In this document: positions 1,370 through 57,734 of the stretch, piece after piece | Numbering within the stretch: the first letter of the stretch is position 1 | Layout of the letters: every line of letters begins with the position of its first letter | DNA from: Eubacteriales bacterium | GTDB lineage: Bacteria; Bacillota; Clostridia; Oscillospirales; CAG-272 | DNA length: 64,000 nucleotides | NCBI GenBank assembly: GCA_045655185.1 | Contig: JAZOOS010000014.1 | Location: forward strand, 14,938 to 78,937 | Direction of reading: 5' to 3' | Position numbers and translations under genes: made by a program | The notes under the pieces: generated by a model | Databases searched by the model: none | What the model was told of the DNA's origin: nothing | What the model saw: only the letters and a program-made list of their open reading frames with translations

Positions 1370-2722
1370 TTATTTCTCGGTGAAGTTTTCCACGAACTCG
1401 GTGAAGATAGCCGGGCGCTCGTCGGGGTTGCGAGTCTCAAAGATGCAGTGGTCAAAATAAACACCCTTGACGTGGCGCATGACCATGCCGTGCGCGGGCA
1501 GCGATTTATGGAAGCCGTACATCGTGACCTCGGGATACATGGTCTCATGCTCTTCCAGCGGCGGCTGAACGGTGTTTTCGGGATCGCACGCGCCATAGCT
1601 GACGATATGCACGTCGCGAAGCGTCAGGTTCTCGATCGGCTGCTCGGCAAGCCCTAAGATCTGCGAGGTCCACTCGTCGGTCAGGGTCCGTTCGGTCCAC
1701 ATCTCGGTCTCCCAAGCCTTGCGGTAGGGGATGATCGAGTAGGTCTCATGAGGCGAATCGGCGTAAACGTTCGAGATCATGATGTTCTTCATCGTACCGG
1801 GAACCATATCGGCCGGGGCGCGCATACGCTTGCCAAGGCGCAAGAAGATCGGGCAGCCGACGTTGCGCATGGTGATATTCGAGATGTTAATGCCCTCCAC
1901 GTGCGCGCCGTCCACGCTCTCGATGGCGATACCCGCGCGCTCGGTGTTCTTGATAACGCAGCCGGTGATGGTGATGTTGCGGAAGTCGCCGTTGGTCTCG
2001 GTGCCAAGCTTAATGGCGCTGGCAAGCGACATAACGACGCAGCCGGTGATGGTAAGGTTTTCGCAGGCCGCCAGGCGGTTGAGGGTATACGAGGCCTTCA
2101 GAACGATGGCGTCGTCCCCACATTCGATATAGCTGTCGGCAATGATGAAATCACGGCAGCCGTCGGGCGAGATACCGTCGACGAGTACGCGCATCGAAAT
2201 GCCGTAGATGCGTACGCGCTCACATCCCGCGAAGTAAAGGCCGAGGTCGGTGGCGCGAAGAACCGTGATCCCCTCGATGATGATATCGCGGCATTCGCGC
2301 ATGGCCATGACCTTGACCGTGCGGTGGTATTCACCGTGCTCTTTATCGGTCCATACGCCCTGCATATCGATGGTTCCGTGACCCGAGAAGCCGATATCCT
2401 CGCAATCGCGGCCAAGGAAGAGCGAGTGGTCGAAATAGGAGTGCGACATATCCTGGAACTTCTGATAGGTGACCTTCTCACGCGGGAGATAATCGTGCTC
2501 AAAATCGGTCGAAGCCAGGATCGTAGCCCCACCCTCGAGGTGGATATGTACGTGCGAGCGCATTTGGATCGTGCCGCACACGAATTTACCGGCAGGGACT
2601 AAAACCGTGCCGCCACCGGCCGCGGCACAATGGTCGATCGCCGCTTGGATCGCCTTCGTCGCAAGGGTCTTGCCGTCAGGGATCGCCCCAAAGTCTAAAA
2701 TAGAAACCATAACTGCCTCCAA
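1370..2722 (-). CDS. glycoside hydrolase family 28 (polygalacturonase-like, right-handed beta-helix)
   Basis: 450-aa ORF. N-terminus is pectate-lyase-superfamily-like (ILDFGAIPDGKT..TKAIQAAID). Internal GDDAIVLK and repeated beta-helix turns (ITGC...) are typical of GH28. Confidence 0.8.
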   Translation of the reverse strand: MEAVMVSILDFGAIPDGKTLATKAIQAAIDHCAAAGGGTVLVPAGKFVCGTIQMRSHVHIHLEGGATILASTDFEHDYLPREKVTYQKFQDMSHSYFDHSLFLGRDCEDIGFSGHGTIDMQGVWTDKEHGEYHRTVKVMAMRECRDIIIEGITVLRATDLGLYFAGCERVRIYGISMRVLVDGISPDGCRDFIIADSYIECGDDAIVLKASYTLNRLAACENLTITGCVVMSLASAIKLGTETNGDFRNITITGCVIKNTERAGIAIESVDGAHVEGINISNITMRNVGCPIFLRLGKRMRAPADMVPGTMKNIMISNVYADSPHETYSIIPYRKAWETEMWTERTLTDEWTSQILGLAEQPIENLTLRDVHIVSYGACDPENTVQPPLEEHETMYPEVTMYGFHKSLPAHGMVMRHVKGVYFDHCIFETRNPDERPAIFTEFVENFTEK

Positions 2723-2794
2723 AAGATTGATTTTATTAAAAAACGAAGTTTCTGTGAAAATCGGTTTTTACGGATAAAAGGGTAATTTTTTCGG

Positions 2795-3394
2795 TTATTC
2801 TTTTTTCTTTTTCGGCTGCATAAGCCCCACCAGCTGCCCCGAAAGGATAACGGTAAGAAGCGAATAGATCAGCCGTTCAAAGGGCAGATACGTAAAGGAA
2901 AGCCCAAGCACCAAAAGATCCGAGAAAAGATAGCAAAGGCGGATATCCACCTTTAAAAGGCGGGAGGCTGCCATCGAAAAGGCGTCGTCTCCGCTTGGCG
3001 CGCCGCCACAGCGAACGCAAAGCCCGACCCCCACCCCGATAAAGACCGCCCCTAACAGCGCCGCTAAAAGCGGTTTATCGCAAACGAAGGGGAAGAGCGG
3101 GGGAAAGCGCTCGCATAGCGCGAAAAAGAGCGAAAAGCTCCCACCCGAAATCATCGAATAAAAGAGAAAGTCCTTTCCAAGAATCCGAATGCCAAAGCCG
3201 TAGCAAAGCAGATTTAAAAGAAGCGAGGAAAGCGCGGGGGAGATCGAAAAATGATGATCCAAAAGAAGCGTAAGCCCCAAAATCCCCCCTTCGGTAATGC
3301 CCGATGGGGCGTGGATATTGTAAAGCCCAAAGGCTAAGATCGCACCCCCTAAAATCGAAAGAAGCACACGGGGGAGTGTAACGAACCTTTTCAT
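2795..3394 (-). CDS. YitT/YczE-type integral membrane protein (DUF161-like)
   Basis: 199-aa polytopic ORF with GITEGGILGLTLL motif. ATGA start/stop overlap with the upstream HAD gene. Confidence 0.65.
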   Translation of the reverse strand: MKRFVTLPRVLLSILGGAILAFGLYNIHAPSGITEGGILGLTLLLDHHFSISPALSSLLLNLLCYGFGIRILGKDFLFYSMISGGSFSLFFALCERFPPLFPFVCDKPLLAALLGAVFIGVGVGLCVRCGGAPSGDDAFSMAASRLLKVDIRLCYLFSDLLVLGLSFTYLPFERLIYSLLTVILSGQLVGLMQPKKKKE

Positions 3395-3969
3395 TTTTCA
3401 AGCGTTTTTTCAAACGGCCAAGGGGTGGGCTGATGATCCTTGATAAGATAGGCTTCCTTGGCAAGGCGCGCCATCGGGGTATCCGAAAGCGAATCCGAAT
3501 AAAAGCATTCGACCTCCCCCTCGGGAAAGACCTCATAGAAGCGGCGGCATTTTTCCTCACCGTAGCAATTTTCCCCGGTATAGGCGCCACTTTTTTTATC
3601 AACGCGCGAGGCGATCAGCGTACCGAAGCCGATCCGCTTTGAGATCTCCTCCAAAAGAAAGGTCGGGGAAGCCGAGATCACCACGTCATCGGGGCGCTTT
3701 ATCGCCGCGTAATAGGGCTCAAGATCTTTTTCGTGCTTGTCCCAGAAAAGCTTTACCTCACGGTCGATATCGTCAATACGGCGAAAGGCCGAAAAAAGCT
3801 TTTCCTTCATTTGGGTCTTGTCGATCCGCTTAAAGCGGTAGGCAAGCGCCGCCTTTATCTGGCGGGGAAGCTCTAAAAGAAGCGAGGGGTGCCGCCAAAG
3901 CAGAAAGCGGTAAAATTGGAAGGTGCTGTCACAAGGATACAGCGTTTTATCAAAATCGTAAGCGTTCAT
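3391..3969 (-). CDS. HAD-superfamily hydrolase (phosphoserine-phosphatase-like subfamily)
   Basis: 192 aa. N-terminal DxDxT motif (YDFDKTL). Lies 3 nt downstream of prfC in the same orientation. Confidence 0.7.
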   Translation of the reverse strand: MNAYDFDKTLYPCDSTFQFYRFLLWRHPSLLLELPRQIKAALAYRFKRIDKTQMKEKLFSAFRRIDDIDREVKLFWDKHEKDLEPYYAAIKRPDDVVISASPTFLLEEISKRIGFGTLIASRVDKKSGAYTGENCYGEEKCRRFYEVFPEGEVECFYSDSLSDTPMARLAKEAYLIKDHQPTPWPFEKTLEK

Positions 3970-3972
3970 CTG

Positions 3973-5565
3973 TCACCGTTTTTCAAATTCACCGAGAACG
4001 AGGCCTTCGTTGTTTTCAAGGGCAAAATTGATGCTCCATTCGCCCGTGAAGATCAAAAGATCTCTTCCGCGCACGTCCTGAACCCTACGGGTATCCGAGG
4101 TGAGGCGAAGCTTATCGTTGCCCATCGGCGCTTCAAGAATATAGCGGATCTTTTCGTGGGGCATCGCGGTGCGGCGCATATCCACGCCGTATTCACTCTT
4201 CATGCGGTACTCAAGCACCTCAAATTGAAGCACGCCGACAACGCCGACGAATACGCGCTCCATACCGGCGCCGGGCTCGAAGAAGATCTGGATAGCGCCC
4301 TCCTCGGCGATCTCCTCCATCCCCTTCTGGAACTGCTTGCGCTTCATCGAATCGATTTGCTCGATCATCGCGAAATGCTCGGGCGCGAAGGTGGGGATCC
4401 CCTCAAAGCGAACGCGGTTTTTCAGGTCACAGACCGTGTCGCCGATCGAAAAGATACCGGGGTCGAAAACGCCGATGATATCGCCGGCGTAGGCGGTCTC
4501 AATGCCCGCCCTTTCCTGCGCCATCATTTGCTGGGGGCGCGAAAGACGGATGTTCTTCCCGCCCTGTACGTGGAAATATTCCTCGCTTCGGTCAAACTTG
4601 CCCGAGCAAATGCGCATAAAGGCGATACGGTCACGGTGCGCCTTGTTCATATTGGCCTGGATCTTAAAGACGAAGGCCGAAAAGGGATCACGCATCGGGT
4701 CAACGCTCCCTTCCACCGTTTTACGGGCAAGGGGCGAGGTCGTCAGCTCCAAGAAGCTTTTTAAGAAAGGCTCAACCCCGAAATTGTTGAGCGCCGAGCC
4801 GAAGAAGACGGGGGAAAGCTTGCCGTGGCGGATCTTGTCAAGATCGAATTCAAAGCTCGCGGCGTCCAAAAGCTCTACCTGCTCGCAAAGCTCTTGCCGG
4901 CGGTATTCGCCGATAAGGCTATCCAGCTTTTCGGTATCCGAAAGCGAGCATTCGACCCCCTCAATGCGAGAGCGGCCGCGGTGCGAATCCGCAAAGGCCA
5001 GGATCTGCCCCTTCTTTCGGTCGTATACGCCGTGGAAGTTCACGCCGCAGCCGATCGGCCAGTTCATCGGATAGGTACCGATGCCGAATTCCTTCTCCAG
5101 CTCGTCAAGCAGATCAAAGGGATCCTGCGCCTCGCGGTCGAGCTTGTTGATAAAGGTAAAGATCGGGATATCCCGCATCGCGCAAACGCGGAAAAGCTTA
5201 CGCGTCTGCGGCTCGATACCCTTGGCGGCGTCAATGACCATTACCGCGCTGTCGGCCGCCATTAAGGTACGGTAGGTATCCTCTGAGAAATCCTGGTGGC
5301 CGGGGGTATCGAGAATGTTGATGCAATACCCGTCGTATTCAAACTGCATGACCGAGGAGGTGATCGAGATACCGCGTTGCTTTTCCAGCTCCATCCAGTC
5401 GGAAACGGCGTGGCGGTCGCTTGATTTTCCCTTTACGGCGCCCGCGGACTGAATGGCGCCGCCGTAAAGCAGGAATTTTTCAGTGAGGGTGGTCTTACCG
5501 GCGTCGGGGTGCGAGATGATCGCAAAGGTACGCCGTCTTTTGATTTCTTGTTCTAAGCTGTTCAA
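3973..5565 (-). CDS. prfC: peptide chain release factor 3
   Basis: 530 aa. Translational GTPase motifs AIISHPDAGKTT and DTPGHQDF. Full-length collinear RF3 architecture. Confidence 0.95.
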   Translation of the reverse strand: MNSLEQEIKRRRTFAIISHPDAGKTTLTEKFLLYGGAIQSAGAVKGKSSDRHAVSDWMELEKQRGISITSSVMQFEYDGYCINILDTPGHQDFSEDTYRTLMAADSAVMVIDAAKGIEPQTRKLFRVCAMRDIPIFTFINKLDREAQDPFDLLDELEKEFGIGTYPMNWPIGCGVNFHGVYDRKKGQILAFADSHRGRSRIEGVECSLSDTEKLDSLIGEYRRQELCEQVELLDAASFEFDLDKIRHGKLSPVFFGSALNNFGVEPFLKSFLELTTSPLARKTVEGSVDPMRDPFSAFVFKIQANMNKAHRDRIAFMRICSGKFDRSEEYFHVQGGKNIRLSRPQQMMAQERAGIETAYAGDIIGVFDPGIFSIGDTVCDLKNRVRFEGIPTFAPEHFAMIEQIDSMKRKQFQKGMEEIAEEGAIQIFFEPGAGMERVFVGVVGVLQFEVLEYRMKSEYGVDMRRTAMPHEKIRYILEAPMGNDKLRLTSDTRRVQDVRGRDLLIFTGEWSINFALENNEGLVLGEFEKR

Positions 5566-5592
5566 GATAGTTTTCCTTTTCTTTTATTGATC

Positions 5593-7191
5593 TTATACGA
5601 GCGCCTCGAAGCGGCGAACCCCACGCCCCCTTATCCAAGCCAGGAGAAGGAGGGAAAGAAGAAGCGGGATCAGCGTAAGGATCGAAAGCACCCAAAGGGG
5701 CGGCAAAATAAACGAGAGAAGGAATCCTCCGACAAGAAGGATAAAGGATAAAAAGCCCGAGGTAAGCATCGAAAAGAGCGAGGCGGCACCTTGCTTTACG
5801 GGTACTAAGAGATTGTTCCATTCAAGCTTCGGGAACAGAAGATTGAGGGTGAGCCCCAAAAGCGAAGCGCACACCGCAAAGATCAAGGGCAGGATAAGCG
5901 AAAGGATCGCTACGGGGAGAGCGGGGGTGAGGGCGATAAGGTAGATGACCCACGCCAGAAAAACGGTGATCGCCGTCGGAATGATTTGCAGAAGAAGCTT
6001 GGAATAAAGAATGGTTCGGGTGGGGACCGGCGAGGTACGCGCGATCCAAAGGCTTTTCCCCTCCAAGGAGACCGAAGCGCAGGAAAGCATCGTCATCGAA
6101 GAGATAAGGCAGCTGGCGAGCGGGGTAAGCACGGGGAGCATTCCCATCAATTCGGGAAGCTCTGCCGAGAGGGCAAACAGGGTATCACGCTCAATCAAAA
6201 GTAGGATCGGCAAAGCGAGCATAAAGAGAAGCCCGATACAACCGTTCAGTATATAGCCCGAGGAGGAAGCAAGATAGAAGAGTTCCTTTTTCGTAAAGGC
6301 CCAAATGGCGCTTGTTTTTTGAACCGTTTTTTCTTTATACGCGCGCTTACGGTGAACGGCGGGCGAGAGAACGGTTTTGAAAAAGGTTTTACTGAGCCAG
6401 TAGTACACCCCGCCAAAAAGCAGAGCCGATACGGCCAAAACGAGCAGAAAATGAAGAAAGGAGCCAAGGGCGGCGCGGCCGAACACGGCAAAGGGAAGCG
6501 CCTTTTGCAAAAAGGAGAGAAGCGGCCCGATCCCCTCCGCGGTGAATCCCTCCATCAGCATCTCGGCCTTTCCCATCAGCCAGAAATAGGCTACGAAAAA
6601 TCCGATCGCGAAAAGAACCGAGGTCAGCTGCTTATAGCGGATCCTTTGTATGATCTTGGTCAAGCACCAGCCAAAAAGGCAGGAGATCGCAAGCGTCGGG
6701 AAGGGGAGAATCAAAAAGCAAAGAAGGCACAGCGCGATATGCCCGAAGGAAAGAGGGGCAACGAGTAGCCATACGATAAAGCCGGGGATGAAGACGATCG
6801 CCTGCATCGCGTAGTTGAGAAGCAGCAAAAAGAGCATGCGGCTACATAGGATCAGATGCGGCGGAATGGGAAGAGACAGCAAAAAGGCGTTATCGCCCGC
6901 CTCAAACAGCTGGCTTTGCGTAAAGACGATACTGCCAAGCAGCATAAAGCCCATCGCGATAAGGGACATAAGGGAAAAGTACGCAAAGGGCTCTCCCAGC
7001 GAAAGGAAGAGCGGGGCCATCGAGCTGAAAACCAAAAGGAAAAGCCCGAAGAAGACGGCAAAGATGTATAAAAAGGCAAGCCCCAAAAGAATAGTAAGCG
7101 GAATGGAATGACGCTTCTTTGCCTTGTTTTTTTGGTTGCCAAAAAACAGCGAAAGGAAACGGATCTTAACCAAAAGCCATAGGGTCCTCAC
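5593..7191 (-). CDS. ABC-2-type exporter permease (polytopic membrane protein)
   Basis: 532-aa highly hydrophobic ORF. GTG start 3 nt after the stop of the ABC ATPase, preceded by GGGGAGG. Confidence 0.7.
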   Translation of the reverse strand: MRTLWLLVKIRFLSLFFGNQKNKAKKRHSIPLTILLGLAFLYIFAVFFGLFLLVFSSMAPLFLSLGEPFAYFSLMSLIAMGFMLLGSIVFTQSQLFEAGDNAFLLSLPIPPHLILCSRMLFLLLLNYAMQAIVFIPGFIVWLLVAPLSFGHIALCLLCFLILPFPTLAISCLFGWCLTKIIQRIRYKQLTSVLFAIGFFVAYFWLMGKAEMLMEGFTAEGIGPLLSFLQKALPFAVFGRAALGSFLHFLLVLAVSALLFGGVYYWLSKTFFKTVLSPAVHRKRAYKEKTVQKTSAIWAFTKKELFYLASSSGYILNGCIGLLFMLALPILLLIERDTLFALSAELPELMGMLPVLTPLASCLISSMTMLSCASVSLEGKSLWIARTSPVPTRTILYSKLLLQIIPTAITVFLAWVIYLIALTPALPVAILSLILPLIFAVCASLLGLTLNLLFPKLEWNNLLVPVKQGAASLFSMLTSGFLSFILLVGGFLLSFILPPLWVLSILTLIPLLLSLLLLAWIRGRGVRRFEALV

Positions 7192-23718: not shown

Positions 23719-23795
23719 GGAGGCATAGCTCAGTTGGTTAGAGCGCATGCTTGACATGCATGAGGTCATAGGTTCAACTCCTATTGTCTCCACCA
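23719..23795 (+). tRNA. tRNA-Val (anticodon GAC), CCA encoded
   Basis: Cloverleaf by eye. Acceptor GGAGGCA/TGTCTCC, anticodon stem CATGC/GCATG with loop TTGACAT, T-arm ATAGG-TTCAACT-CCTAT, 3' ACCA. Confidence 0.95.
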
Positions 23796-23838: not shown

Positions 23839-23943
23839 AGCCGACGAAGGAGGCTTGGCATGGCATCAACGCCCGAGGGCGTTGAATGGAATCACGGCAA
23901 CACCGTGTATGGCATCGGCCAAGGCCGTATGCTTTCGTCGGCT
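23839..23943. other. unassigned 105-nt GC-rich multi-helix element (strand unknown)
   Basis: P1 AGCCGACGAA/TTCGTCGGCT, P2 GGCTTGGC/GCCAAGGCC, P3 CAACGCC-cgag-GGCGTTG, P4 CACGG-caaca-CCGTG. Junction strands are ATGGCAT, AATGGAAT and TATGGCAT. Confidence 0.35.
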
Positions 23944-26986: not shown

Positions 26987-27955
26987 TTACGGATTTATAC
27001 CGACGTAGCCGCTTTCCTCGATGATATACTGTCCTTCATCCGAAAGCATCCAGTTGATCAGCGCGTCTACGTTGGGGTTTTCGTTGCCTTCGTAGGTAAC
27101 GGCATAGACCGGGGCAATGATCGGATAGATGTTGTGCCGTATGCTTGCGGCGCTTGGCGCCACGCCGTTGACCGCGATCATCTTGATATCGGGGTGCTTA
27201 ACAATGCCTTCGATGTAATAACGGAAGGAGTAGCCGATCGAGCTGGTTTGGTTTTTATAGGTCGCCACTTGCTCAATAATGCCGCCCATAAACCCGATAA
27301 GCTCTTCTGTGTCGGGTTCAAGCATGGGGACGTTCCCCATAAAGCGAAGCATCATGCTTTGGCTTCCGCTCCCCTCGTTTCGCTGAAAGGGGACGATCTC
27401 CTCGTCGTTTCCGCCGACCTCGCTCCAGTTGGTGATCTCTCCGGAATAGATCTTTCGGATCTGTTCGGCTGTGAGCGAGGTGACGGGATTATCCTTATGC
27501 ACGAAGAACACGAACGCTTCCCAGCCAAGCTGTGTGTACGTAAAGGTCGTGCCGCATTCTTCGGCGTAGGCTATCTGCTCGGCCGAGGGGGCGGCGCCAA
27601 TAAAGATATCGGTCTTTTTCTCGGCCAGCTTTTCGTAGCCGCCGACCGTGTTGTTATATTCAAATACCCCGTCATAAAGCGTGGTCGTGTTGGGGTAGAC
27701 CGCGTTGACAAAGGCGGAATAAACCGGGAAGGCCGCCGTCGCCCCGTCGATGATCGGCAGATTTTCCGTAAGCTTCAACGTTTTACTGTCGTATTTCACG
27801 ATCTTGCTGTCATCGGTAAAGGGCAGGTATTCGTCCGCGTAGATATAGGGCGCCGTATCTATGCTTTCGGGCCCGAAAATCAATTCCAAAAGCGCGCAAG
27901 AGGATAAGGAAAACAGGCAAACGAGCGAAAGAATCACACAAAGAAATTTTTTCAT
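26987..27955 (-). CDS. PstS-family phosphate-binding lipoprotein (orphan; no pstCAB nearby)
   Basis: Start trimmed to MKKFLCVILSLVCLFSLSSC (lipobox). PBP-like body (GATAAFPVY, NEGSGSQ). Confidence 0.8.
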   Translation of the reverse strand: MKKFLCVILSLVCLFSLSSCALLELIFGPESIDTAPYIYADEYLPFTDDSKIVKYDSKTLKLTENLPIIDGATAAFPVYSAFVNAVYPNTTTLYDGVFEYNNTVGGYEKLAEKKTDIFIGAAPSAEQIAYAEECGTTFTYTQLGWEAFVFFVHKDNPVTSLTAEQIRKIYSGEITNWSEVGGNDEEIVPFQRNEGSGSQSMMLRFMGNVPMLEPDTEELIGFMGGIIEQVATYKNQTSSIGYSFRYYIEGIVKHPDIKMIAVNGVAPSAASIRHNIYPIIAPVYAVTYEGNENPNVDALINWMLSDEGQYIIEESGYVGINP

Positions 27956-27992
27956 AATTTTACCGCCTTTCTTTTTGCTTTTGCTTAATAAA

Positions 27993-28021
27993 ATTATAGC
28001 ATACAAGGCTTTCTTTGTCAA
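27993..28021 (-). promoter_or_regulatory. consensus promoter of the PstS-like gene
   Basis: Minus strand TTGACA (28016-28021), 17-nt spacer, TATAAT (27993-27998). Confidence 0.6.
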
Positions 28022-28088
28022 TGTTATTCCTTCTGTGGTGCCGCGGCGGTGTAGGGGAACCCGTCTTGTAGGGGGCGCTACCACCAAA

Positions 28089-28172
28089 GCTCTTGCCATG
28101 CAAGAGCTTGCTTCAAAAGTGGAATTATCCCAACCAACAAAAAAGGACTGCGTGTGCAGTCCTTTTTTGTTG
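28089..28172 (-). repeat. tRNA-Gln-like degenerate repeat, copy C (terminator-like hairpin plus 5' block only)
   Basis: Minus strand: CAACAAAAAAGGACTGC-acac-GCAGTCCTTTTTTGTTG, then TTGGGATAATTCCACTTTTGAAGCAAGCTCTTGCATGGCAAGAGC. The 5' block is near-identical to blocks at 30188-30250 and 30380-30443. Confidence 0.7.
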
Positions 28173-28346
28173 CGATAAACGTGCGAAAAGGTGTCTAAAT
28201 AAGGAAAAAAACGAAGAAAATGTCAACTTGTTTTAATAATTCAGTTAATTTTAATTTTGAATTATTGTCACGGGTGTCACATCATTACTGAAATCATACT
28301 AATGCCAAAGGCGTGGATTCCTTCCGTAAAATAGCTTAAGTAATAT

Positions 28347-28850
28347 TCAACTGAGATATTTCTTTTCAAACTCGAAGTTCATTTTTTTAAATGGAAAATC
28401 CAGCTTGTAATCTTCCCCCTTGCATGTCTTATATAATCTTATTCGTATTTTTATCAAGGCAATGACCAAAGGAAATATTTTTTCAAGGCAAAGTATTGCA
28501 TATTCACTGCAAGACGGAACACACATGCATCTTTGCCGAGTTTCCTCTTTTGCATAATGCTGATAGCATTTCACTGTTTGAACCAAACAGAATCTTACAT
28601 ATAATTCGAATATGAAAAGAAGCAAAAGGAGAAACACGAGTATACTATGCACTGTAGAAGTCTTCTGCCAAACAAATGAGAAAAGAATTGCACAAAGCAA
28701 CAGTAACGGTATAGTAGAAAACAATAAGATTACGTGCCACTTTTTTGTATCTGGCCTTTTAAATTGCCTTCGGCAGATGAATTGCTCAAGTTTTCTCTGT
28801 TTTGCATATTCCTTTCGGCAAAGATGAACATCCGCTTGAATAGATGACAT
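28347..28850 (-). CDS. 2-TM membrane protein with C-terminal YidD-like (PF01809, haemolytic domain) module
   Basis: 167 aa. CYQHY..RQRCMCVPSCSEYAILCLEK..RLYKTC matches the YidD pattern YQ-x(n)-CRF-x-P[ST]CSxY..A...R..RC. TAATG overlap with the upstream gene. Low GC. Confidence 0.65.
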   Translation of the reverse strand: MSSIQADVHLCRKEYAKQRKLEQFICRRQFKRPDTKKWHVILLFSTIPLLLLCAILFSFVWQKTSTVHSILVFLLLLLFIFELYVRFCLVQTVKCYQHYAKEETRQRCMCVPSCSEYAILCLEKIFPLVIALIKIRIRLYKTCKGEDYKLDFPFKKMNFEFEKKYLS

Positions 28851-29491
28851 TAGTTCTTCTTATCTGAGAAAGAGATACAGCCGGCCTTCTTAGGCATTTC
28901 ATAGGAAGGATCGACCTTCTTAATCTTTTCAGCGTAGAACTCAGCCTCTCCCTTAGGAGGATAAGCGTACCACTTCTGTGCGAGCGATACGTATTCTTTC
29001 CAAGCCAATACAGCAATTGCTATAGCGCCGTTATCGCCGTTATAAAGCTTTTCGATTTCGTTACCAAGATCGCGTATTGCAAACATACCATTCTTACAAG
29101 TGGAAACGATTGCGTTCTGATCAAACACCTTAACGTAAGAATCTCCGACCTTGGTTTCGTGGTTCTTTTTGTTCATATATCTGTTCAAGGACCATGCCTC
29201 CGGAATAAATGCATTCACTATTTCGGAAATGGTTGCATACTGCTCTGTCACCGAAGCGTCGGAATTTTTTACCATCTTGATTGCCGATAAAACTACCTGG
29301 CATACGTTAGAAAATCTCTTGGGGATTTCTCCGTTTTGGCCTTCATACAATGCATAAAAAGCATAGAAAAATTTTGCTTCGCCGTCATCGGGATTTTCTT
29401 CTCTGGCCTTGTTGTAGTAGGTTTTTGCATCTTCACTGTTACCTTCTGCGCGCGCCTGACGTGCTAAGGTTAAGTACTTGTTGTTTTCCAT
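28850..29491 (-). CDS. hypothetical soluble protein with TPR-like N-terminus (213 aa)
   Basis: Start trimmed to MENNKYLTLARQARAEGNSEDAKTYYNKA (ATG 29491, AAGGAGAG upstream). No TM segments. Low GC. Confidence 0.65.
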   Translation of the reverse strand: MENNKYLTLARQARAEGNSEDAKTYYNKAREENPDDGEAKFFYAFYALYEGQNGEIPKRFSNVCQVVLSAIKMVKNSDASVTEQYATISEIVNAFIPEAWSLNRYMNKKNHETKVGDSYVKVFDQNAIVSTCKNGMFAIRDLGNEIEKLYNGDNGAIAIAVLAWKEYVSLAQKWYAYPPKGEAEFYAEKIKKVDPSYEMPKKAGCISFSDKKN

Positions 29492-29515
29492 AGAGGTTCT
29501 CTCCTTAATGTTATT

Positions 29516-29558
29516 ATTCCAAATCGGAATTATATGCATTATAATTCCAATTCGGAAT
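29516..29558. promoter_or_regulatory. two copies of a 15-bp palindromic operator ATTCCAA(A/T)TCGGAAT
   Basis: Copies at 29516-29530 and 29544-29558, plus a half-site ATTCC at 29584-29588. All lie in the divergent XRE/operon intergenic region. Confidence 0.55.
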
Positions 29559-29566
29559 TTTGTCAA
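29538..29566 (-). promoter_or_regulatory. perfect consensus promoter of the TPR-like/YidD-like operon
   Basis: Minus strand TTGACA (29561-29566), exactly 17 nt, TATAAT (29538-29543). The whole spacer is operator copy 2. Confidence 0.6.
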
Positions 29567-29616
29567 GGCTTTTTCGATATATAATTCCAAAAAAGAATAA
29601 AAAAAGAAGGCTTTTT

Positions 29617-29892
29617 ATGAAAGTTCGCAAAAAAGAATATGGAAATGCCAATATGGTTGGCAAGAAAATCGAGCAATTGAGGAAAGACAAGGGAATCAAG
29701 CAAAAGGATTTTATTGCAAAAATGCAAGTAATGGAGTGCGATATTAATCCAACCAGCTATTCAAAGCTTGAGGGGCAAGTGCGAAGCGCAACCGACAAGG
29801 AGATATTTGTAATATCAAAAATACTTGATGTGCCAATGGAATCCTTGTTTGGAGAATTAGATATAGAAGAAAAAAGAATGCCGTTGGAATGA
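29617..29892 (+). CDS. XRE-family (HTH_3) transcriptional regulator
   Basis: GKKIEQLRKDKGIKQKDFIAKM...SYSKLEG...KEIFVISKILDVPMESLF is a classic Cro/C1 HTH. An alternative start is ATG 29653. Confidence 0.8.
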   Translation: MKVRKKEYGNANMVGKKIEQLRKDKGIKQKDFIAKMQVMECDINPTSYSKLEGQVRSATDKEIFVISKILDVPMESLFGELDIEEKRMPLE

Positions 29893-29940
29893 ACGCAGAC
29901 TCACGATAAGATACAAGAGCGGCTTGGATAAACAAACAAA

Positions 29941-29982
29941 GAACGTTTGTCAGCAGACAAACTTTCTTTGTTTATTAGCTGA
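29941..29982 (+). terminator. terminator of the XRE gene
   Basis: CAAAGAACGTTTGTC-agca-GACAAACTTTCTTTG followed by TTTATT. Confidence 0.55.
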
Positions 29983-29983
29983 A

Positions 29984-30279
29984 ATAGTTGGGTATTCGCC
30001 TGTGGCAGATAACCAAGCGTGCACGAGTCTGAGCTTGCACAAGCGAGGCACGCGCAGGTTGCTCTGCGAGCACTTCGACACCGTCGAAGTAAGCCAAGGG
30101 GCGGCGCCACCACGGCGGCGCGCTCGCGGAGAGCAAGATTTTTCGCCGAGAAATCGCCTCGCGAGCGGGCGATGTTCTTTCGGCTCAAATGTGAACCAAC
30201 GCTCTTGCCATGCAAGAGCTTGCTTCAAAAGTGGAATTATCCCAACCAACCAAAAGGGCACGCCGAAGCGTGCCTTTGG
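29984..30279 (-). repeat. tRNA-Gln-like degenerate repeat, copy B (hairpin + 5' block + about 180-nt GC-rich insert + 3' block)
   Basis: Minus strand: CCAAAGGCACGC-ttcg-GCGTGCCCTTTTGG; then TTGGGATAATTCCAC..GCTCTTGC-atg-GCAAGAGC GTTGGTTCACATT; then the insert; then GCCACAGGCGAATACCCAACTAT. Confidence 0.7.
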
Positions 30280-30298
30280 CTTTCGTTTGAATCAGCGA

Positions 30299-30473
30299 TT
30301 GGGATAGTTGGGTATTCGCCTGTGGCGAAGATTCTTCGGCTTGCCGCCGATCAGCAAGCTATCGTCGCTCTGCGCCGAGAATGTGAACCAACGCCCTTGC
30401 CGTGCAAGAGCTTGCTTCAAAAGTGGAATTATCCCAACCAACCAAAAGGGCACGCCGAAGCGTGCCCTTTTGG
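30299..30473 (-). repeat. tRNA-Gln-like degenerate repeat, copy A (hairpin + 5' block + about 55-nt insert + 3' block)
   Basis: Same architecture as copy B. Begins TTGGGATA and ends CCAACTATCCCAA, so its two ends can form the same acceptor/T-stem pairs as the adjacent real tRNA-Gln. Confidence 0.7.
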
Positions 30474-30474
30474 T

Positions 30475-30551
30475 TGGCTGGGATAGTTGGATTTGAACCA
30501 ACGAAATGCCAGAGTCAAAGTCTGGTGCCTTAACCGCTTGGCTATATCCCA
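30475..30551 (-). tRNA. tRNA-Gln (anticodon TTG), CCA encoded
   Basis: Minus strand TGGGATATAGCCAAGCGGTTAAGGCACCAGACTTTGACTCTGGCATTTCGTTGGTTCAAATCCAACTATCCCAGCCA. Acceptor TGGGATA/TATCCCA, anticodon loop CTTTGAC, T-arm GTTGG-TTCAAAT-CCAAC. Confidence 0.95.
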
Positions 30552-30749
30552 ATAACGCAAAAGAGTATACCATATTTTTCGGTCGGTGTCAATCACCTTT
30601 TCGGTTATTTTTCGTTTTTTTGCAAAAAGAACGTTTTCGGGGCGAATGCGCCGCGGAAACGGTTTTTCTTGCGTTTTGGGAAGCGACGTAGTATAATGAT
30701 AGAAGAATTCGGACAAAGAAGAGGCCGTCAGCCTTTGGGGAGATACCGT

Positions 30750-31268
30750 ATGGAAGAGAAAAGACCCTTTGAAATAGAACGGAAATTTTTGATCGAGATG
30801 CCGAAAGAGGCCGATCTTCTTTCAATGGAAGGGGCTTTTTGCGACGAGATCCTGCAAACCTATCTCGTATCCCGAGGTGGGCTTACCCATCGTGTGCGGC
30901 GGCGTGCGCACGGCGGCGAGGTTGGCTATACCGAGACCAAAAAGACCCGCCTTACCGATCTATCCTGTATTGAGGAGGAGCGGCAGATCGGGAAAGAGGA
31001 ATACGAGGCGCTCTTGCGCCTTGCGGACGGGGCGCTTTCCCCCATTGAAAAGAAGCGGTATTGCATTCCGTACGGCGGGCGCCTGTTGGAGGTGGATATC
31101 TACCCCTTCTGGCAAAGAAGCGCTGTTTTGGAGGTGGAGCTTCCCACCGAGGAGGCCGCCTTTTCTCTGCCGCCCTTTATCCGTGTGATTCGCGAGGTAA
31201 GCGGAGAGGTGGCCTACAAGAACCTTTCGTTGGCCCGACGTATACCCAACGAGCCCGAATTCTTGTGA
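30750..31268 (+). CDS. CYTH-domain protein (CyaB/thiamine-triphosphatase-like)
   Basis: Start at MEEKRPFEIERKFL (the EIERKFL motif is the CYTH signature). 172 aa. Confidence 0.85.
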   Translation: MEEKRPFEIERKFLIEMPKEADLLSMEGAFCDEILQTYLVSRGGLTHRVRRRAHGGEVGYTETKKTRLTDLSCIEEERQIGKEEYEALLRLADGALSPIEKKRYCIPYGGRLLEVDIYPFWQRSAVLEVELPTEEAAFSLPPFIRVIREVSGEVAYKNLSLARRIPNEPEFL

Positions 31269-31432: not shown

Positions 31433-31461
31433 AAGAAGCAAGTTACAGAAGCAGAAGAAAT

Positions 31462-31597
31462 CCAATATAAATTCGGAATATCGGCCCGAACGTTTCTACC
31501 GCACGCCAAAGATGCGACTATTGGTTCCCCTTCTTTTTTCTTTATTTGTTTAGGGGTTTTTGGCAGTCGCACGGTACAACGGGGCGTCTGCTTTTTT
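31462..31597 (+). promoter_or_regulatory. purine (guanine/xanthine-type) riboswitch with terminator expression platform
   Basis: Aptamer 31462-31524. P1 CCAATA/TATTGG, P2 TTCGG/CCGAA, conserved J2/3 GTTTCTACC, J3/1 GAC with C at the specificity position. Terminator GCAGTCGC/GCGTCTGC + T7 at 31562-31597. Directly upstream of xpt. Confidence 0.8.
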
Positions 31598-31614
31598 TGA
31601 TTTTTGGGGGAGCT

Positions 31615-32190
31615 ATGAAGGCACTGGAAGAGAAGATCCGCCGCGAGGGCGTTGTACTGACCGAGGATATCTTAAAGGTTGGCAGCTTTTTGAACCAGCA
31701 GGTTGACGCCGCCTTTATGTTAGAGATCGGGCAGGAGATCGCGCGCCTTTTCAAAGAGGACAAGGTCGATAAGGTCTTAACGCTCGAATCCTCGGGCATC
31801 ATTATGTCGGTGCCGGCGGCCGCCGCGCTCGGCGTACCGCTTCTTATCGCCAAAAAGAGCCCTGCTTCTACCCAAACCGGGAAGACCTATTCCTCAAAGG
31901 TCACCTCCTTTACCCACGGAAACACCTATTTCGCGACGGTCGGCGCCGAATACCTCAAGGCGGGTGAGCGCGTTCTGATCGTAGACGATTTTTTGGCCCG
32001 CGGGGCGGCCCTTGTCGGTCTTTGCGATATCGTAAAGCAGGCGGGTGCCGTGGCTGTCGGCGCGGCGATCGTGATCGAAAAGCAGTATCAAGGCGGCGGG
32101 GACAAGCTGCGCGCCGAAGGGCTGCGGATCGAATCGCTTGCTAAGATCGTGAAAATGAGCCCTACGGAGGGCATCACCTTTGCCGATTAA
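31615..32190 (+). CDS. xpt: xanthine phosphoribosyltransferase
   Basis: Start at MKALEEKIRREG (GGGGGAG upstream). PRPP-binding VLIVDDFLARG motif. 191 aa. Confidence 0.9.
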   Translation: MKALEEKIRREGVVLTEDILKVGSFLNQQVDAAFMLEIGQEIARLFKEDKVDKVLTLESSGIIMSVPAAAALGVPLLIAKKSPASTQTGKTYSSKVTSFTHGNTYFATVGAEYLKAGERVLIVDDFLARGAALVGLCDIVKQAGAVAVGAAIVIEKQYQGGGDKLRAEGLRIESLAKIVKMSPTEGITFAD

Positions 32191-57614: not shown

Positions 57615-57734
57615 ATTTGCTGGTATGCGTTGAAGTGGGAGATTGCTGCCTACCCTGGGGCAGGGAACTTCCATGGAGTATGTCCGTTAAACGGGCGATG
57701 TCGAATAGTATGCCGTAGGGGGCATACCTTCCTG

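Follow-up and report, generated by a model that had tools for sequence, protein, structure and literature searches.

Directly behind its tRNA-Gln gene, the stretch of DNA studied here (64,000 nucleotides (nt) of an Eubacteriales bacterium, contig JAZOOS010000014.1, positions 14,938 to 78,937; hereafter the window) carries tandem units that resemble degenerate pieces of that tRNA wrapped around structured inserts. A reading of the window from its letters alone (the sequence-only reading) had offered two explanations, namely scars of repeated integration and excision at the tRNA gene or a family of tRNA-like structured RNAs, and the question raised by this locus is what these units are. They belong to an unannotated, widespread and strongly covarying family which matches no Rfam family. 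The reading that we favour, tentatively and with somewhat less than even confidence, is that they are tRNA-linked repeats of a new family and probably give rise, by read-through of the tRNA terminator, to a structured RNA.

Anatomy of units A, B and C

The locus is composed of the following features, given in window coordinates. Related loci used for comparison are labelled with L-numbers, L003, L004 and L007 having been reached through the neighbouring PBP protein. Pa, Pb and Pc designate the helices of the conserved core, and R1 a covariance model of that core.

30592-30564, minus strand: strong promoter of tRNA-Gln, TTGACA-17-TATACT (promoter scan)
30551-30475, minus strand: tRNA-Gln(UUG), whose 3' half is the source of the copies in the units (ARAGORN; Rfam tRNA model, 65.4 bits)
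30441-30474, minus strand: terminator T1, hairpin AAAAGGGCACGC-TTCG-GCGTGCCCTTTT (sequence, fold)
30440-30300, minus strand: unit A, whole
30410-30440, minus strand: reverse-complement block of unit A, with TGG as anti-CCA, TGGGATA as anti-acceptor 3' strand, then the anti-T arm (three-way alignment)
30393-30411, minus strand: hairpin of unit A, GCTCTTGC-acg-GCAAGGGC, the apex of P2 (sequence, fold)
30384-30392, minus strand: direct copy in unit A of the T-stem 5' strand GTTGG and of TTCA of the T-loop (repeat finding, alignment)
30312-30383, minus strand: conserved core of unit A, with CAT, Pa, internal loop GCAGAG/GGCAA, Pb hairpin, Pc CTTCGCC-aca-GGCGAA and linker TAC (model R1 and covariation)
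30300-30311, minus strand: direct copy in unit A of the T-stem 3' strand CCAAC and the acceptor 3' strand TATCCCA, without CCA (repeat finding)
30249-30277, minus strand: terminator T2 between units A and B, a copy of T1 minus its outer left arm (terminator scan call at 30274-30257)
30248-29980, minus strand: unit B, whole
30192-30248, minus strand: reverse-complement block of unit B, hairpin GCTCTTGC-atg-GCAAGAGC and copy of the T-stem 5' strand with TTCA (97% identical to unit A)
30135-30191, minus strand: left part of the variant core of unit B, with Pa kept (ATTTGAGCC/GGCGAAAAAT), Pb changed to ATCGCC-CGCTCGCGA-GGCGAT and the beginning of Pc
30007-30134, minus strand: nested insertion of ~130 nt that splits Pc of unit B (comparison with L004 units lacking the insertion)
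29980-30006, minus strand: right part of unit B, with the 3' half of Pc GCCACAGGCGAATAC, CCAAC and the degenerate acceptor copy TATTTCA (23 of 23 nt identical to unit A)
29931-29976, both strands: bidirectional terminator hairpin past unit B, at the islet border (inverted repeat and terminator scan)
28173-29930: islet of low GC content (0.28-0.43) between units B and C
28172-28089, minus strand: unit C, truncated, with a different terminator hairpin (28172-28135), a reverse-complement block (28136-28106) and a hairpin (28107-28089)

Units A and B and the truncated unit C are located on the minus strand where the sequence-only reading had placed them, with every element that it had listed. The 34-mer TTGGGATAATTCCACTTTTGAAGCAAGCTCTTGC has exactly three occurrences (30437-30404, 30245-30212 and 28133-28100) as compared to none in 100 shuffles, and repeat finding recovered a 90-nt direct-repeat family together with the terminator hairpins. 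The terminator-like hairpins that head the units were likewise confirmed, the one in copy C differing in sequence as had been reported. T1 is the centre of an inverted repeat whose 29-nt arms (30427-30455 and 30460-30488, 93% complementary) reach into the 3' end of tRNA-Gln, and unit A starts 35 nt past the tRNA.

The block that opens each unit had been likened to the acceptor 5' strand of the tRNA. The resemblance is real and the identity is not, because the block, which reads TGG-T-TGGGATA-ATTCC-ACTTTTGAA-GCAAG, is the diverged reverse complement of the CCA, discriminator, acceptor 3' strand and T arm of tRNA-Gln and prolongs the terminator palindrome; 25 of 32 positions in unit A match the reverse complement of the last 32 nt of the tRNA. 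The hairpin that follows, described as perfect, is indeed so in units B and C and is imperfect in unit A, while in L004 the same apex reads GCCTTTGCC/GGCAAAGGC, a compensatory change relative to unit A. The direct copy of the T-stem and T-loop of tRNA-Gln upstream of the insert is present as claimed, and so are the 3' copies in unit A, where 12 of 12 nt are identical to tRNA-Gln (CCAACTATCCCA; 12-mer common to both, TGGGATAGTTGG), and the degenerate acceptor copy in unit B. The 3' ends of units A and B have the 23-mer ATAGTTGGGTATTCGCCTGTGGC in common. Folded alone, unit A is predicted to form an acceptor-like closing stem of 7 base pairs (bp), so that the acceptor/T minihelix proposed by the sequence-only reading can form in this unit.

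Both inserts are structured, as had been noticed, and they differ in nature: the insert of unit A (30383-30312) is the conserved module, while that of unit B is a divergent module plus the nested insertion. R1 matches unit A at 30395-30306 (89.9 bits, E 1.7e-24) and unit B at 30203-30113 (20 bits, E 0.0016), the latter being a divergent copy of the core that retains Pa, the T-stem copies and Pc and differs in Pb; a Pb of this type is found complete in L004 (8113-8203 and 9811-9901; 52 bits). The homology of unit C stops at TTTGGT, and the next feature after it is the promoter of the PBP gene (PBP_like_2) at 28021-27993. The description of the inserts as GC-rich holds to a small degree, the GC content of the unit region (0.54-0.61) being merely slightly above that of the flanking host genes (~0.5-0.6). 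As for the insertion nested in unit B, blastn matches its 3' 69 nt to L104 (2236-2304) and L158 (5376-5437) at 84-86% identity, at positions and in an orientation other than in unit B; these 69 nt are a separate small repeat family.

The conserved core, its carriers and its linkage to tRNA genes

In the aligned copies, the core runs from an invariant GGTTCGCAT through the 9-bp helix Pa, an internal loop, Pb, the 6-bp Pc and a 3-nt linker to the T-stem 3' strand. Pa contains a sliding bulged A or, in one subfamily, tandem G.A, the bases GCAGAG and GGCAA of the internal loop are invariant, and Pb is CAAGC-TY-GCTTG alternating with CGAGC/GCTCG. The whole core is ~72 nt long and replaces the three 3' nucleotides of the T-loop, the copied T-stem closing the module.

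This structure was derived by hand and tested by pair counting and with R1, which was built from a seed alignment of 31 sequences; the structure given by RNAalifold on a MAFFT alignment was poor because of register shifts in that alignment and was dropped in favour of the hand-derived fold. In the seed, 94% of the cells are paired compared to 85% in shuffles and 38-44% when the partner is slid, and 15 of the 28 pairs show double compensatory changes, a result that is independent of the model. The alignment of all hits, which is fitted to the model so that its pairing percentages are somewhat inflated, has 92% of cells paired compared to 74% in shuffles and 29-48% with the partner slid, with compensatory changes in 27 of 28 pairs. 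Among the stem mismatches of the 83 best copies, G.U is more frequent than A.C (24 versus 11) and G.A more frequent than pyrimidine-pyrimidine (52 versus 6), and the structure is therefore read on the tRNA-sense strand. Over all hits the wobble count is indecisive (59 versus 40), and the strand was resolved with the good hits and with the comparison of G.A to pyrimidine-pyrimidine mismatches.

A search pattern for the core taken from the insert of unit A (AGAGCG-N5-AGCT-N-GCT-N5-GCGGCAAG-N-CG) retrieved 73 stretches from ~60 assemblies among the species representatives of GTDB and was also found in 11 metagenome contigs, with no match among 2.9 million viral contigs; unit A itself has no blastn match in phage or plasmid records. 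The carriers are all metagenome-assembled genomes (MAGs) of Clostridia, Eubacteriales and Oscillospiraceae from ruminant and other animal guts. With R1, 125 copies from 85 sources were obtained, representing ~60 species-level MAGs of herbivore-gut Clostridia. The failure of the sequence-only reading to match the units to any RNA class was borne out by the Rfam 15 scan, in which no family comes at or near its gathering threshold and the overlaps are chance-level microRNA and small RNA (sRNA) matches on the terminator palindrome. The scan with tRNA detectors that it had called for was done as well, ARAGORN and the Rfam models of tRNA and transfer-messenger RNA (tmRNA) reporting true tRNAs only. 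A literature search for an existing description of the units returned work on Escherichia coli tRNA-linked repeats (TLRs) only. Some candidates and probes led nowhere. Resemblance to domain V of group II introns, T-boxes, known ribozymes or a tmRNA-like domain was limited to subfamilies and without any Rfam match. The probe GGTTCACATTTGAGCCG gave mostly chance matches in unrelated phyla, and the exact 21-mer GGGATAATTCCACTTTTGAAG of the 5' block is absent from the genome, viral and metagenome collections, being unsuitable as a probe because the 5' block is tRNA-specific.

Among the close relatives, L004 has three units around a different islet, and L003 has, at the place of unit C, an even shorter remnant consisting of a stump of the 5' block alone. 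In L007, whose tRNA-Gln is a different one, this tRNA is followed by one unit and the tmRNA gene by another; the flanks of each derive from the local gene while the inserts are homologous between both contexts. Several loci have more than one copy (three in L122; two each in L110, L111, L113, L116, L125, L136, L156, L162 and L163). Core subtypes partly track the tRNA type, with an identity of 0.76 within and 0.65 between types and a nearest-neighbour core of the same tRNA type in 31 of 69 cases. From such sequence relationships, the core appears to be inherited mainly vertically, which would be consistent with selection.

The linkage to tRNA genes is general. Of the 127 matches of R1, 70 are preceded on their own strand, within 800 nt, by a tRNA or tmRNA gene, 31 are too near an edge and 26 are orphans, i.e. 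70 of the 96 assessable matches are linked; several of the orphans follow a degraded or uncalled tRNA 3' end or have an island between the tRNA and the unit. The linked genes comprise 16 tRNA species (Met, Gly, Ser with two anticodons, Gln with two, Val with two, Glu with two, Cys, Thr, Arg with two, and Ala) and tmRNA, and the 49 first copies lie 71-157 nt behind the gene, a distance of ~75-130 nt being usual. In 1.0 Mb of related loci chosen blind to the motif, R1 finds two matches, both of which flank tRNA-Ser. It was also observed that 31 of the 127 matches, many of them in L102-L182, are within 300 nt of a locus or contig end, and that L001, an 1830-nt metagenome contig with the PBP and DUF436 genes of the window, ends 68 nt upstream of the PBP gene, just before unit C; the repeats may break short-read assemblies.

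The flanks of the core are made from the local gene. The spacer of every one of the 49 first copies contains a reverse complement, diverged and typically ~30 nt long, of the last ~30 nt of the local tRNA. The direct copy is well preserved in the T-stem (87% identity to the local tRNA for the 5' strand and 93% for the 3' strand, with 95% of T-stem cells paired), compared to 51% in the acceptor strand and 21% in NCCA across the 49 units. The inverted block retains complementarity to NCCA (81%), to the acceptor strand (80%) and to the T arm (~70%); in many copies its segment opposite the T-stem 3' strand has G-to-C changes, and its self-pairing is down to 72.5%. At positions that distinguish the direct copy from the tRNA, the inverted block agrees with the tRNA 74 times and with the copy 7 times. 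An origin of the inverted block and the copy from snap-back cDNA is not supported, because both diverge independently from the tRNA and the loop of T2 has the same orientation as that of T1. The junction always reads T(T/C)CR followed by CAT and the rest of the core, and position 57 has the base of the local tRNA (TTCA in the Gln unit of the window and in the tmRNA and Cys units; TCCG in the Gln unit of L007).

These results bear on the second explanation of the sequence-only reading. A large unannotated family of structured elements exists, on the tRNA-sense strand, and the acceptor/T minihelix is not its conserved feature: the acceptor and NCCA copies are poorly kept across the 49 units, the supposed acceptor 5' strand belongs to an inverted copy that tracks the tRNA and not the 3' copy of the unit itself, and the copies found on the 5' side of tRNA-Ser, described below, have no closing stem.

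A proposed read-through RNA and its competitors

Upstream of units A and B the promoter scan finds the tRNA-Gln promoter alone, with none between T1 and the units, and among the hairpins downstream of units a following T-run (27) is much more frequent than a preceding A-run (6). Together with the tRNA-sense orientation of the structure, this makes the units most simply RNAs produced by read-through of the tRNA terminator; and since the units have no promoter of their own and terminators in the sense strand commonly stand between them, their transcription would be carried out by the polymerases that read through. Polymerases passing the tRNA terminator would thus transcribe the units, as in the T1-sRNA-T2 arrangement of E. 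coli rrn operons. The duplex of tRNA 3' end, terminator and inverted copy, along with the T-arm-like stem, would then direct nucleases to cut out a stable folded RNA of some 100-140 nt, whose conserved loops presumably bind a protein or RNA partner. If the origin is read-through, the level of the unit RNA would follow transcription of the tRNA operon. Arrays may grow and shrink via recombination between the tRNA-derived direct repeats, and these repeats at a tRNA hotspot might let unrelated islets lodge between units.

Several points weigh against this interpretation. The transcription, processing and trans-acting function of the units are what we infer from their arrangement. The acceptor-like stem, the would-be substrate of tRNA processing, is kept in about half of the units, and since the inverted block follows the tRNA far more often than it follows the direct copy, intramolecular P1/P2 pairing is not demonstrably selected. 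The inflation of the pairing percentages in the all-hit alignment belongs here too, as does the nature of the mismatches: G.U is in modest excess, and in single-stranded DNA, too, no mismatch is more stable than G.T and G.A. Moreover, three cores on the minus strand lie upstream of tRNA-Ser and antisense to it (L010 6700-6789, L153 1868-1958 and L168 6024-6114), without closing stem, inverted block or evident promoter or terminator. They sit, reversed, inside a direct pseudo-copy of the first ~22 nt of the tRNA, at GCTTCG^AT on the minus strand of the D-loop, and they fit insertion at the DNA level better than read-through RNA. In L010, where one tRNA-Ser is surrounded by a 5' and a 3' copy, both have the same distinctive Pb CGACAAGCTCGCTTGTCAGGCG while Pa differs by compensated changes, and this sequence relationship suggests that they are paralogues from a local copy event. 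Considering the D-loop and T-loop contexts together, the core therefore always stands right after T(T/C)CR, within a partial copy of the tRNA next to it. Neither the RNA nor the mobile-DNA interpretation accounts for the agreement of the flanks with each local tRNA.

The main alternative, which we consider rather unlikely although it would explain the D-loop copies and the fixed junction, is mobile DNA: the core would be a non-autonomous miniature element of the kind of IS200/IS605-derived PATEs or REPINs. Such an element would insert 3' of YTTCR, without target duplication, in single-stranded or hairpin DNA, its hairpins being recognised by a transposase encoded elsewhere; it would find its target in the T-loop of any tRNA or tmRNA gene and, antisense, in the D-loop of tRNA-Ser, with survivors only in non-functional partial copies. 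The fixed junction agrees with it, the core being always found after T(T/C)CR and before the local sequence that follows A58 or the AT of the D-loop, a pattern that is observed where transposition itself was not. In the tRNA-Ser 5' pseudo-fragments of three species, the orientation of the module is set by the motif and not by transcription, and the L010 paralogues, the hairpins at both ends, the existence of tandem and orphan copies and a mismatch spectrum that would equally fit single-stranded DNA of the sense strand all point the same way. PATEs and REPINs are similarly small, hairpin-rich and non-coding, with a fixed short target, no obvious duplication, alternating orientation and a position after genes or terminators. 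They differ from the units, however, in that no transposase was seen in ~600 kb around the copies, nor an HUH/Y1 transposase within the 8-20-kb loci examined, and in the confinement of the units to tRNA-derived sequence with flanks copied from the neighbour gene. Dispersed copies at the many other TTCGA sites are absent, both matches in the unbiased 1 Mb being next to tRNA. The tracking of tRNA type by core subtypes across species argues against recent mobility, the constant partial tRNA duplicate (with the inverted copy in 3'-side units) is left unaccounted for, and the invariant internal-loop bases and sense terminators suggest RNA. The RNA and mobile-element interpretations are not mutually exclusive.

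The scars put forward by the sequence-only reading as its other explanation would be remnants of integrase-mediated integration and excision of islands at tRNA 3' ends, with the repeats as attL/attR cores and the conserved core as a former attP arm. Direct repeats of the tRNA 3' part do bracket the units, islets of foreign composition or cargo lie between units at such a hotspot (in the window, and in L134 with an AlwI-type gene pair), and in L166 the gene of a large serine recombinase (4497-6101) stops immediately before a tRNA-Glu-type unit that no tRNA precedes, which suggests an element integrated between the tRNA and its unit. On the other hand, no recurrent integrase accompanies the family. 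Clustering of 1,148 open reading frames (ORFs) around the units gave no recurrent real family, the largest cluster being UvrA-like with 7 members, and the 141 nearest ORFs fall in 126 Pfam families with no more than three members each, two of the ORFs, including that of L166, being large serine recombinases and no tyrosine recombinase family reaching the two-member level for Pfam listing. Furthermore, the units are absent from the viral, phage and plasmid collections, a near-identical core accompanies tmRNA and 16 tRNA species, a range of targets not to be expected of any single integrase lineage, covariation of stems is not expected for protein-binding arm sites, and the point at which an islet borders on a unit varies between loci. 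The scar explanation is consequently already largely refuted and very improbable. Finally, the units could be cis elements without a product, i.e. an extended palindromic terminator or insulator that blocks read-through from strong tRNA promoters, its structure serving as a roadblock or as an RNase entry site. This would agree with the constant position of the units between the tRNA terminator and the next gene, with the prolongation of the terminator stem by the complement of acceptor and CCA (~80%) and with the second sense terminator that commonly follows. It is nevertheless improbable, given that an insulator needs neither invariant loop nucleotides nor a three-helix fold conserved over ~60 species, and that tRNAs without units in the same genomes (tRNA-Val of the window and tRNA-Gln of L003) have ordinary terminators and no inverted copy.

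Among known systems, the closest and only described counterpart with which the units are best filed is that of the E. coli TLRs, without homology in sequence or structure. Repeats linked to tRNA genes have been known in E. coli since 1978, and the members include the 178-bp repeats of tyrT (rtT RNA; Rfam RtT) and the rrA, rrB and rrF sRNAs behind 5S rRNA. There are 22 copies at 10 loci, each of which repeats at its end the terminal 18-19 nt of the tRNA or rRNA before it; the copies in rrn operons lie between two terminators and are transcribed by read-through and processed, whereas no function is assigned to the tRNA-linked ones (PMC8144298). Like the TLRs, the units are directly downstream of stable-RNA genes, on the same strand and often in tandem. 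Each unit also ends in a copy taken from the 3' part of the upstream tRNA, with the T-stem 3' strand always present and the acceptor and NCCA copies poorly kept. They differ in that the copied part is mainly the T-stem and not the last 18-19 nt, and further in the three-helix module within the T-loop copy, the inverted copy of the tRNA 3' end before each unit, the Clostridia host and the 5' D-loop variant. No homology to RtT was found at E<=10 in window positions 27800-30800 or at E<=1 in ten related loci. With the tRNA-like domain of tmRNA, the YrlA Y RNA and other tRNA mimics, the units share the ability of the ends of unit A to form the 7-bp acceptor-like stem and the T-stem around an insertion, and unlike these mimics they have the insertion in the T-loop instead of the anticodon-arm position, an acceptor pairing that is not conserved and no signal from the tRNA and tmRNA detectors or Rfam.

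The units would be an independent and much richer example of tRNA-linked repeats, spread over ~60 species, 16 tRNA species and tmRNA, and they offer sequence handles on the partners of the GCAGAG/GGCAA loop, on transcript cleavage and on the evolution of flank matching. A broader proposal, doubtful though possible in our opinion, is that the core defines a new class of elements specific for the conserved T-loop sequence of tRNA-type genes: either a structured RNA that uses copies and anti-copies of the host tRNA 3' half in tRNA maturation, surveillance or charging, or a miniature mobile element homing to TTCR^A. In both cases the core would share its unexplained origin with the E. coli TLRs. 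Were this so, the decades-old puzzle of the E. coli TLRs would become tractable by comparative genomics. The units also raise an annotation issue, as they are unannotated and mimic tRNA fragments.

Islets and other elements beside the units

The islet between units B and C encodes an HTH_3 regulator (29617-29892, plus strand), a TPR-like protein (28850-29491, minus strand) and a YidD-like membrane protein (28347-28850, minus strand) according to Pfam, with no recombinase among its proteins. Its GC content departs from that of its surroundings (~0.55), and it has its own consensus promoter on the minus strand (29566-29538). The ~60 nt ahead of the unit C terminator are shared with L003, which holds a different and smaller islet, and the islet of L004 contains small ORFs. 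In L134, a 3.4-kb islet behind tRNA-Glu (2262-5158) encodes an AlwI-type restriction endonuclease and a D12-class adenine methyltransferase and is flanked by ~300-bp direct repeats, each made of one unit and an array of hairpins with AATGATGT. Defence and other islets accumulate at the sites that the units mark.

Beside tRNA terminators or units, L003 (880-1100), L134 (5500-5390 and 2040-1940, minus strand) and L114 (2362-2438 and 2458-2541) have arrays in which short hairpins of variable stem are set apart by a constant linker, the linker being AATGATGT in L003 and L134 and GTGAAGT in L114. The Gut-1 RNA motif (RF01706), a motif from gut metagenomes, is found just past a tRNA terminator in L114 (45 bits, the threshold being 50), and thus Gut-1 may be a tRNA-linked element; with its short hairpins and constant GUGAAAU-type linker, it differs from the units and is a separate class of element. 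In the window itself, a structured element of ~105 nt (23839-23943, plus strand) stands just past the terminator of tRNA-Val(GAC) (23719-23795). It has a long closing stem, AGCCGACGAAGG/GCTTTCGTCGGCT, around short hairpins with (A/T)ATGGNAT linkers, a fold z-score of -8.45 with the terminator included and no Rfam match, and it looks like a second kind of tRNA-linked element.

Around the tRNA-Ser genes with 5' copies, the promoter region of L010 is duplicated on both sides of the core copy (repeats of ~70 nt, 6600-6680 and 6795-6870), and in L010 (6830-6862) and L153 (1990-2030) the -10 region is separated from the first base of tRNA-Ser by a perfect palindrome, ATATGATGCA...TGCATCATAT, which resembles an operator or a processing hairpin. 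Elsewhere in the window, two elements score above their Rfam gathering threshold: a purine riboswitch (31443-31540, plus strand), followed by a phosphoribosyltransferase-like ORF (31546-32190), and an S10-Clostridia ribosomal protein leader (57622-57698, plus strand).

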